Source: Promethearchaeota archaeon | Lineage (GTDB): Archaea; Asgardarchaeota; Lokiarchaeia; Sigyniarchaeales; Promethearchaeaceae | Assembly: GCA_016933055.1 (NCBI GenBank) | Contig: JAFGBS010000021.1 | Coordinates: 90,001-122,000, forward strand | Length of the DNA: 32,000 bases | Direction: 5' to 3' | Part shown: positions 2 through 2,464 of the stretch, piece by piece | How positions within the stretch are numbered: position 1 is the stretch's first letter | Layout: each line of letters starts with the position of its first letter | Notes under the pieces: generated by a model | What the model was told of the DNA's origin: nothing | What the model saw: the letters and a program-made list of their open reading frames with translations, nothing else | The model's database searches: none | Program-made: the position numbers and the translations under genes

Positions 2-2464
2 AATTCGATGATGTTTCCCATAGGTGATTAAAACGCAAATGATTTTTTCATCATAATTGAAGTAAATTGTATATTCCCCATGGCTGATTTCATTGATTCC
101 TTTCTCTGTTTGCAGAATACTTTTCAATAAGGATTGGATACCACTAAATGCACCCGCTGCAAGGACTTCATCAATTTCAGTCTTCGATTTTTCATTTATG
201 GGTTTTTTGGTGGTTTTTTTCGTGACTTTATTTAGTTCTTTCTGGTCTTCTTCTTCCACTATTTGGTCTTCTTCAACATCTAGAGATGTTTTCTTCATGT
301 ACTTTTCGATTTTCTCGTCACTATCTTGCTCTGAAGTGAGGGAAACATCATTCTTGGTGAATTTATGGGTGAAAAGTAATAATGACCCTTGTTTTTCTAA
401 TACCATTAGTTGGAGGGGTCTAAATTCTTTAAGTTGTTTTTTCTGTTTTACTAACAGATAGGTCCCAACAACAGCTGTAGCAACAAAGATTATTGAACTC
501 GCAATAATTAAGCCAAATTGCCATCCTGTTAATCCGCTAGAAGTTAGACTATGTGTGTAAAGGATGTCCTCCTTGGAATTGTTTCCTTCATCTGTTTCAT
601 TTACTGTCAAAATTGGATCCACAAATATGGACAGGAAATAATTTTCCCCAACAGTCAAGTCGTGTCTATATAGGGATTTGAGGATACGTATTTCTTTTGT
701 TTCATTTACTTCCAGATCAAATGGAGTTAGTTCATTATTATATAAAACAAGAGATTCGGCAGGTATAGTAACCACAACAACAATACCTGTGGCTCTCCAA
801 ACGCCGATATTCTTAATTGTGAAAGAAATTACATCCCCATCCAAGGAATAGTTGTTCAATATTACTAAATCTGGCTTTGGATAATCCCACGGATCCACCG
901 GATTAAATCCCAATGGAATTTCATCATTATCATGAATTCCATCTCCATCGCTATCTACCTTATTGGGATCGATCGGCGATCCGTCATACGTATTTGCTGA
1001 ACCTGAAATCTCGTCATAATCTGTGTACCCATCCCCATCCGTATCTATTTTGTTCGGATTCGTTGGTGTTCCATCATAGGCATTAGCACTGCCTGTAATC
1101 TCTCCTCCATCAGTGAGTCCATCCCCGTCGGTATCGGGGTTAAAAGGATTGGTAGGTTGACCCCCAAAAGGATTTAATCCCCCATTTATTTCAGCATAAT
1201 CTGAAAGTCCATCTAAGTCATTATCATCCAATAAACTGAAGTTTGCTACCATTAAGGGGCGATAATCCGTGATATTGGCATCAATGACATAAGGGGAATC
1301 TGCAATTCCATCCAGATCTGCATCTGTACCGGAAAAAGTGTCCCAAAAGTTACCAAATTGCGAATTATTCCAATTCGTGTCTATAGAGTTATCCAATGCA
1401 TGAATAGAATTAGATTTGAATGTATTCTTATAAAATTGAAAATGGGTGTTGTTGTAGTTCGAATTATATGGAATATATATTCCATATTGGGTATTGTCTT
1501 GGATTATATTGTTAGTAATTGTATTATAATCGCTGTTTATTCCCACACCAAATCCCTTTTGATTATTATTAATGCGGTTACCCTCAACCCACATAATATC
1601 ACATGCGGAAAAATAAATTCCATTCCCAGAATTATCCGTTACATTATTATATAGAATATATGAGTTTTGACTCAGCAATCCATAAACTCCATTTCCATTA
1701 TTTGTAATTTCATTCTGAGTGACATTCGTGCGATAATCAACTAACAAATATATTCCATGGGAATTATGATACGTAATTTTGTTTTCGAGAACAGTATTAT
1801 AATCTGAATGCCCTATACACAATCCGTAATTTTGTCCCCCTATTCCACTGAAAGTATTATTCCAAAAATCGCAAAAATCTGAATCGTCTAAATAAATTCC
1901 ATATTGGTTGTTGCCTCGAATAATATTATGTTGAATTTTAAAATTTGAGTTTCTAACAGCGGCGGTTCCTCCCAAATAGATCCCTGTGTTTCCATTATCT
2001 TCTAAAGTATTATATTCTACTATAAAATCATTGCAATCATAAATATATATTCCGTAATAGGCATTATCAGAAATTTCATTCGAGATGAGATGTCCATTGT
2101 CCACGTTTTTCATTACCAGTGAGCTACTATCTGCAGTACTACCCGCATTATAGATTGTTACATTCTCGATTCGAAAATATTCTGTGGTGTTTCCAATAAG
2201 GATCCCATATTGCCCATTCGCATCAATTTCGATATCTTGAATAACGTATGGATTGCCAATGGTTCCTGCACCAGTACACCACTCATATGTAGAGTTAGTT
2301 ACAGTCCAATTTCCATCGATATGTATTCTGTATCCCAATGGAGCCGAGGATTTTACTGATTGAATGTCGTAGGAGAGATAATTCCCTTCATTTCCAAAAA
2401 GAGATAACCATAATCCCATTGATAAAAGTACCATTAGGATAAAAGCAATATTGAGTTTTTTCAT
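2..2464 (-). CDS. Cell-surface protein, 3'-truncated by the window edge: signal peptide, NosD/parallel beta-helix, four DxDxDG Ca-binding (TSP3-like) repeats, CARDB/Ig-like domain, one TM helix, cytoplasmic longin-like domain
   Basis: Absent from the ORF track. Manually translated as open from ATG 2464 (MKKLNIAFILMVLLSMGLWL) for 821 codons to the edge. Contains GTIGNPYVI, repeated NN..GIY beta-helix turns, GNFWD..DLDGIADSPY, DTDGDGLTDGGEI-type repeats (~900-1235), PDLVI..FTIKNIG..VDP...ETDEGNN (~560-875), TM FGLIIASSIIFVATAVVGTYLLV (~451-520), then LMVLEKQGSLLLFTHKF..DEVLAAGAFSGIQSLLKSIL..EISHGEYTIYF..IICVLIT. Confidence 0.9.
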   Translation of the reverse strand, partial: MKKLNIAFILMVLLSMGLWLSLFGNEGNYLSYDIQSVKSSAPLGYRIHIDGNWTVTNSTYEWCTGAGTIGNPYVIQDIEIDANGQYGILIGNTTEYFRIENVTIYNAGSTADSSSLVMKNVDNGHLISNEISDNAYYGIYIYDCNDFIVEYNTLEDNGNTGIYLGGTAAVRNSNFKIQHNIIRGNNQYGIYLDDSDFCDFWNNTFSGIGGQNYGLCIGHSDYNTVLENKITYHNSHGIYLLVDYRTNVTQNEITNNGNGVYGLLSQNSYILYNNVTDNSGNGIYFSACDIMWVEGNRINNNQKGFGVGINSDYNTITNNIIQDNTQYGIYIPYNSNYNNTHFQFYKNTFKSNSIHALDNSIDTNWNNSQFGNFWDTFSGTDADLDGIADSPYVIDANITDYRPLMVANFSLLDDNDLDGLSDYAEINGGLNPFGGQPTNPFNPDTDGDGLTDGGEITGSANAYDGTPTNPNKIDTDGDGYTDYDEISGSANTYDGSPIDPNKVDSDGDGIHDNDEIPLGFNPVDPWDYPKPDLVILNNYSLDGDVISFTIKNIGVWRATGIVVVVTIPAESLVLYNNELTPFDLEVNETKEIRILKSLYRHDLTVGENYFLSIFVDPILTVNETDEGNNSKEDILYTHSLTSSGLTGWQFGLIIASSIIFVATAVVGTYLLVKQKKQLKEFRPLQLMVLEKQGSLLLFTHKFTKNDVSLTSEQDSDEKIEKYMKKTSLDVEEDQIVEEEDQKELNKVTKKTTKKPINEKSKTEIDEVLAAGAFSGIQSLLKSILQTEKGINEISHGEYTIYFNYDEKIICVLITYGKHHRI

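Follow-up and report, generated by a model that had tools for sequence, protein, structure and literature searches.

The gene considered here lies at positions 2..2464 on the (-) strand of the window, i.e. of the whole 32,000-nucleotide stretch of Promethearchaeota DNA that was analysed, and encodes an 863-aa membrane-anchored surface protein. Its open reading frame exits the left edge of the window: aa 1-821 are encoded inside, and the last 42 aa (aa 822-863) with the stop codon are located to the left (C30:89873-90001). Recovery of the full gene from the adjacent DNA, which had been advised in the original prediction, was accomplished with the genome sequence and gave a complete gene of 863 aa ending in a stop codon (G000 C30:89873-92464). 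From the N-terminus, the protein comprises a hydrophobic segment, a NosD-like beta-helix, four repeats of calcium-binding type, a CARDB-like domain, a transmembrane helix (TM) and a terminal domain assigned to the longin fold. The ectodomain as first described (N-terminal segment, beta-helix, four DxDxDG repeats, CARDB, one TM) was confirmed by Pfam, hydropathy and AF2. Full-length orthologs with 62-66% identity are found in four database clusters; with the window's own, five clusters are known and they come from about one genus. Of 154 genomes from the order, only two, G000 and G001 (both of one genus), were found to have the full architecture, besides the four database clusters. Every folded part of the protein is under purifying selection, with pN/pS values of 0.09-0.26.

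Upstream of the gene there are an ADP-ribosylglycohydrolase gene and a cold-shock gene, and downstream there is a sulfatase gene. The ADP-ribosylglycohydrolase gene (window 2579-3700, (-) strand, Pfam 2.4e-32) is directly upstream, co-oriented and 114 bp away, and it was not seen beside the orthologs. An operon with GTPase or roadblock genes was not found either: no such gene was seen near the gene or its four orthologs, no ORF with a small-GTPase motif was detected on contig C30, and the genes that recur beside the orthologs encode cold-shock and SnoaL-like proteins. GTPase/roadblock operons are reported to be uncommon in MK-D1 (Tran et al. 2024, PMC10933270), so that the lack of a GTPase neighbour says little for or against a GTPase partner. 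Elsewhere in the window, three tandem paralogous surface serine proteases of 530-536 aa each (4532-6124, 6244-7854 and 7972-9582, (+) strand) combine a trypsin-like domain, CARDB and a C-terminal TM with a short basic tail, an acetyl-CoA hydrolase/transferase is fused to a C-terminal GNAT domain (24192-26093, (+) strand), and a 455-aa ORF (15446-16813, (-) strand) has no Pfam family at E 0.001.

The N-terminal basic and hydrophobic segment (aa 1-24; 2393..2464, (-) strand) is, by hydropathy, a putative signal peptide or signal anchor; across aa 1-39 the character is kept, yet the identity among orthologs is only 15-21%. It is followed by an N-cap and a right-handed parallel beta-helix of NosD/CASH-like type (aa ~43-405; 1250..2338, (-) strand), recognised by Pfam, AF2 and Foldseek. 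In this region NosD (4.8e-37) and Beta_helix (6.3e-35) both exceed the Pfam cut-off, and the AF2 pLDDT is mostly 87-97, with about 80 in the final 40 residues. Foldseek matches of the beta-helix include AlgE4/AlgE6, NosD, AlgG, lyases, tailspikes and the adhesin PfbA, at 10-17% identity, and judging from such matches glycan binding by the beta-helix is plausible. Four 30-aa TSP3-like DxDxDG repeats come next (aa 411-527; 884..1234, (-) strand). They were recognised by the motif, which is found at aa 414, 444, 474 and 504 (a 30-aa period) and once more at 381 in the beta-helix cap; the Pfam match to TSP3_bac (0.003) is below the curated cut-off and AF2 is unreliable here (pLDDT <50). The array is probably a calcium-binding spacer, and one ortholog (P0006) has about 120 additional residues of such repeats. 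The stalk is completed by a CARDB-like domain of Ig fold (aa 528-640; 545..883, (-) strand), which opens with W-[DE]-Y-P-K-P-D-L and was assigned from Pfam, AF2 and the stalks of kin proteins; the Pfam match (0.0098) is under the curated cut-off, and the AF2 model there is a beta-sandwich.

Hydrophobic segments are present only at aa ~5-24 and at aa 648-672, the latter being the single transmembrane helix (449..523, (-) strand; hydropathy), after which the basic stretch KQKKQLK follows. Because of these two segments and the basic stretch, the C-terminus is predicted to be inside, whether or not the first segment is cleaved, which agrees with the intracellular tail of the original prediction. 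N-glycosylation sequons were rejected as topology evidence, as their asymmetry (15 in the ectodomain and 0 in the tail, with 11.5 expected by composition) is not above chance (p=0.15).

A signal sequence, a repeat/Ig stalk and one membrane anchor are common to this protein and to adhesin-like archaeal proteins (NosD/beta-helix; Nerearchaeum, bioRxiv 10.1101/2025.07.22.663070). The nearest beta-helix relatives, however, mostly stop a few basic residues past the TM, whereas the present protein adds a 190-aa cytoplasmic domain. Among 42 further ectodomain matches, most of the beta-helix ones finish with a TM and a short basic tail, and a longin-like tail was scored in just three. Three surface proteins with a TSP3 array or a beta-helix (P0186, P0194 and P0169) bear longin-like tails of their own, suggesting further independent fusions. 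No ectodomain paralog with another tail was found in the genome, except a 258-aa protein with a shared N-cap. The stalk (last calcium repeat, CARDB and TM) recurs in two other genera, at loci L040 and L041, with 35-40% identity. The L040 protein (L040:1-3690, (+) strand, genome G105) consists of FG-GAP repeats, TSP3-like repeats, the CARDB-TM stalk and a cytoplasmic TIR_2 domain (7.8e-13), past which there are an unannotated region that by eye is adaptin-appendage-like and a terminal CxxC zinc ribbon; it is a Toll-like layout in an Asgard archaeon. The L041 protein (L041:1384-2397, (+) strand, genome G038) is head-less, with one TSP3 repeat, a CARDB-like domain and a TM, and its tail is a low-complexity linker with a Cys-rich, zinc-ribbon-like C-terminus. 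The survey of ectodomain shuffling that had been proposed earlier thus supported modular exchange on both sides of the membrane, as evidenced by trees, ectodomain relatives and stalk recurrence.

The longin domain is the fold by which eukaryotes dock small GTPases. In the AF2 model, built from a 27-row alignment, the order of elements in the tail is strand-strand-(loop)-helix-strand-strand-strand-helix-helix, with the last two helices mostly outside the window (model elements E5-13, E19-24, H89-108, E115-118, E121-127, E131-138, H143-164 and H171-183). On the (-) strand of the window, AF2 places strands beta1-beta2 at aa 683-702 (359..418; 65-85% identical in orthologs), helix alpha1 at aa 763-785 (110..178; the predicted dimer helix, also from co-folding), strands beta3-beta5 at aa 786-815 (20..109; 83-93% identical in orthologs) and the start of alpha2 at aa 816-821 (2..19), the rest of alpha2 and alpha3 being beyond the window. 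The exhaustive structure search (VIA) was headed by synbindin (Z 11.6, rmsd 3.4, 117 aligned), Sec22b (11.5), CPLANE (11.2) and VAMP7 (11.0), with the Loki longin 8yqg (8.4), MglB (7.1) and profilin (6.3) in lower rows; its top 37 rows are entries containing a longin and stand above roadblock and profilin. A profile search of PDB sequences with the tail gave Trs23 at E 4e-4. In Foldseek longins likewise occupied the top rows, but at E > 0.001, and no match at E <= 0.001 was obtained because of the insert described below and the low identity. No Pfam longin family matches the tail above cut-off, and its paralogs in the genome have sub-threshold Longin/Fuz_longin_1 matches only. The model's element order and the VIA search nevertheless support the longin assignment of the original prediction, and neither of the two outcomes that would have refuted that prediction, a tail of another fold or one placed outside the cell, was seen. 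The roadblock/LC7 assignment was rejected by element order, since a strand comes directly after the TM and two helices stand at the end. TRAPPC4/Trs23, Sec22b, VAMP7, Fuzzy/CPLANE, sigma/mu adaptins and the Roadblock-Longin 8YQG have the same fold and element order (Z 8-11.6), but solved longins are only 11-17% identical to the tail, which has a 60-aa beta2-alpha1 loop. Moreover, they are soluble subunits or stand N-terminally on tail-anchored SNAREs, whereas the present domain is C-terminal, cytoplasmic and placed under an ectodomain of ~620 aa. The longin core is 60-96% identical between orthologs (alpha1/beta3-5 78-96%, more than the ectodomain), and in each of three pairs it has the lowest pN/pS of all regions (0.09, 0.14 and 0.21).

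In GAP-type longins the arginine finger is located in the beta4-beta5 loop. No Arg is present in aa 786-815 of the tail, where this loop reads Y-[DG]-[EG]-[KT], and no GP motif was found in beta1-beta2. A GP motif before beta2 defines the GAP-type longins FLCN, NPRL2 and SMCR8 and their Asgard relatives (PMC12290439); the longin fold is shared with them, but as both the motif and the arginine finger are absent, a GAP role and a GAP-type assignment were rejected.

The beta2-alpha1 loop is occupied by a charged low-complexity insert (aa 703-762; 179..358, (-) strand; pLDDT 43-62) with 13 K, 10 E, 7 T and 6 D over 60 aa. Its presence between strand 2 and the helix had been correctly foreseen; its length had been put at ~50 aa and is 60 aa by the present boundaries. 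By one alignment-based measure the loop is 62 aa long here and 32-55 aa in the four orthologs, with medians of 5-7 in the wider family. The insert is 13-20% identical between orthologs and its pN/pS, calculated from an uncertain alignment, is 0.66-0.78 versus 0.09-0.21 for the core. A functional domain was rejected on account of the low model confidence, variable length and near-neutral evolution, and the insert is a tolerated flexible loop.

Co-folding of two copies of the tail gave a score of 0.52; among reference structures, 20 of 30 solved homodimers attain this mark, as does 1 of 23 single chains. The best of 3 controls scored 0.01, the pLDDT was 68 and contact agreement between runs was at least 80%. 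The predicted contacts (aa 765-786, 788-800 and 813) belong to alpha1 and beta3, the latter as edge strand. In solved longins the dimer interface is likewise formed by alpha1 and beta3, and alpha1 faces the GTPase (Levine 2013, PMC3747258). The interface falls on the columns that vary least in an alignment of 35 near relatives, in which G775 and L780 are invariant and L768, L784, I793 and H795 near-invariant. The tail is predicted to homodimerise by way of these two elements, forming the ten-stranded platform customary for longins. The score supports such pairing, but resemblance to longin dimers of known structure (8yqg, TRAPP, Mon1-Ccz1) may account for part of it. The small residues A770, G771, S774 and S778 on alpha1 resemble the helix by which MglB contacts MglA, where substitution of A68/A72 weakens binding (PMC3199381). 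At the end of alpha1, position 782 is Glu in all 31 donor-type nearest tails and Glu or Asp in 168 of 177 others; in all five members of this clade it is Ser/Thr, and therefore partner binding may be changed or weakened.

The genome encodes 27 longins of the tail's sub-type, carried by soluble proteins, by GTPases and by membrane proteins with one or several passes, and tail-type longins are present in all 31 related genomes tested. The tail profile matches 10,071 clusters (50% identity clustering), and the nearest Atlas clusters are mostly from Promethearchaeota, the label also given to a close ortholog, in keeping with a Loki-type Asgard host. With architecture labels taken from crude hydropathy, the best 149 clusters include about 57-80 membrane proteins that end in a longin, most of them multi-pass, whereas in about 32 a large ectodomain is joined to a single TM and the longin is followed by more sequence. 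The top non-ortholog matches are membrane proteins of 360-385 aa with a terminal longin, or fragments. This large family of ~360-385-aa multi-pass proteins (L004:679-1818, L006:1495-2607, L013:685-1809, P0030, P0079) has no Pfam family above cut-off, and Atlas leads for its membrane part are all under 0.9, including HisKA_7TM on 10% of one cluster, and were set aside; the family may be the principal class of membrane-longin sensors in Promethearchaeia. Other longin proteins observed are a CBS pair fused to a longin (L032, G000 C16:157220-158038) and a 1758-aa single-pass protein with a longin and a weak MIT-like C-terminus (L014, G000 C27:189057-194333).

In a tree of 182 rows the tail nests with multi-pass tails (98 SH-aLRT), and in a mixture-model tree of 55 rows the clade of five groups with nine multi-pass tails (99/97); the alignment has 119 columns, the tree is unrooted and the bootstrap is not fully settled. 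One clade of the tail with the other single-pass giant-ectodomain proteins is rejected (AU p=0.018), which is supporting evidence only, as this grouping was picked after the first tree and the single-pass proteins do not form one clade in the free tree. The nearest non-orthologous kin of the tail are multi-pass proteins with a terminal longin from Promethearchaeia (P0030, P0079, L004; 30-41% identity), and the best match of P0030 in the genome is this tail (41%). They share the terminal longin position and the C-terminal W/F-x-G...F motif, but have no N-terminal part in common with the present protein, end alpha1 with Glu and have a short beta2-alpha1 loop. A search with P0030 as query of G000, which is 91% complete, and of G001 (76%) recovered only this tail's kind and no full-length protein of the nearest donor clade. 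The direction of capture is inferred from the nesting and the narrow range, and the protein appears to be a chimera, restricted to one genus, of an adhesin-like ectodomain and a longin captured from the multi-pass family.

For the role of the protein, the reading with somewhat better than even chances is that of a surface protein of adhesin-like type in which the captured longin forms dimers and serves as a non-catalytic docking site for the partners of membrane longins. The beta-helix would be the head on a calcium-repeat and CARDB stalk, and the longin, acquired within one genus from the ~360-385-aa multi-pass family, would pair or cluster the surface protein and tie it to cytoplasmic partners of the large Asgard membrane-longin family, either other longins or small GTPases. 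As a result the adhesin could be placed, retained or turned over at particular membrane sites. The original prediction of a sensor coupling surface or glycan binding to GTPase/roadblock signalling received no direct support: no GTPase or roadblock gene was seen beside the gene or its four orthologs, and GAP-type motifs are absent. Signalling and a role in docking or localisation explain the data equally well. A true receptor, in which binding of a glycan or partner cell by the beta-helix alters the dimer state or the TM geometry, so that the longin platform is assembled or released and switches a small GTPase, is considered rather unlikely. In its favour are the single-pass receptor architecture, the conservation of alpha1/beta3-5 above that of the ectodomain, the predicted dimer, the MglB-like small residues of alpha1, the TIR domain borne by L040 on the same stalk and the 52 ORFs with small-GTPase-like motifs found in the genome by a crude pattern. 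The missing GP motif and arginine finger speak against it, the variable number of calcium repeats argues against rigid mechanical coupling, and the lack of GTPase genes beside the gene and its orthologs, or of their motifs on C30, weighs little as such operons are rare in MK-D1.

It is improbable that the protein is a surface enzyme modifying or binding polysaccharides, similar to alginate epimerases or lyases, with the longin only as a sorting or retention tag. AlgE4, AlgE6, AlgG and lyases are among the best structural matches, sugar-catabolic genes occur downstream in the contig (the sulfatase by Pfam, the others by the look of the sequence only) and a GH20 gene adjoins ortholog P0005. At 10-17% identity, however, these matches are of a kind that any beta-helix would give, with NosD and tailspikes ranking equally; most positions that are invariant among the relatives are Asn/Gly of the ladders or belong to the cap, and the neighbours of the orthologs differ. 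Very improbable is a neutral passenger fusion, i.e. a chance capture whose tail does little beyond folding: in none of the three pairs does any region have a lower pN/pS than the core, and lineages that differ by 34-38% have retained it, even though the narrow range (2/154 genomes of the order), the drifting insert, the loss of the family's conserved Glu and the many ectodomain relatives that manage without the tail would all suit such an origin.

Expansion of longins and domain shuffling in Asgard archaea have been published (Liu et al. bioRxiv 10.1101/2020.10.19.343400; PMC10933270; Makarova et al. PMC11188069), and the passages found there describe longins fused to GTPases, to roadblocks, to TRAPPC3, to Vps28/adaptin appendage and to two-component domains. 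The longins reported there for Lokiarchaeia (41 predicted in Loki) are expanded, shuffled and lineage-restricted, like the 27 of the sub-type in the present genome. A protein of ectodomain-TM-longin type was not found described in the largely open-access literature searched. The present case stands out by the signs that its longin was captured independently from the multi-pass family, by a tail reduced to one terminal domain, by the predicted dimer and by the loss of the Glu.

A wider reading, tentative and on the whole doubtful, is that Lokiarchaeia possess a mix-and-match receptor kit of heads (beta-helix, FG-GAP propeller or none), a calcium-repeat/CARDB/TM stalk and outputs (longin, TIR with further domains, zinc-ribbon-like), in which a captured longin lets surface binding control a GTPase. 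The present protein would then be a recent product of the kit, with its longin taken from the multi-pass sensor family, and if this is true, its logic would foreshadow, in archaea, that of the adhesion receptors which eukaryotes couple to GTPase switches. The single gene matters less, belonging to about one uncultured genus and being one among thousands of related fusions; it is an example of how, inside a single genus, longin tails move from one membrane protein to another that is unrelated. With just one terminal longin, its tail is as simple as can be and lends itself to purification, pull-downs and tests of dimerisation, and the acidic residue that the family conserves best is naturally replaced in it, which offers a handle for mapping the partner-binding face. 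Asgard cells, which have no known organelles, contain many longin domains, and membrane proteins with a longin tail physically connect the surface of the cell with machinery of GTPase type.
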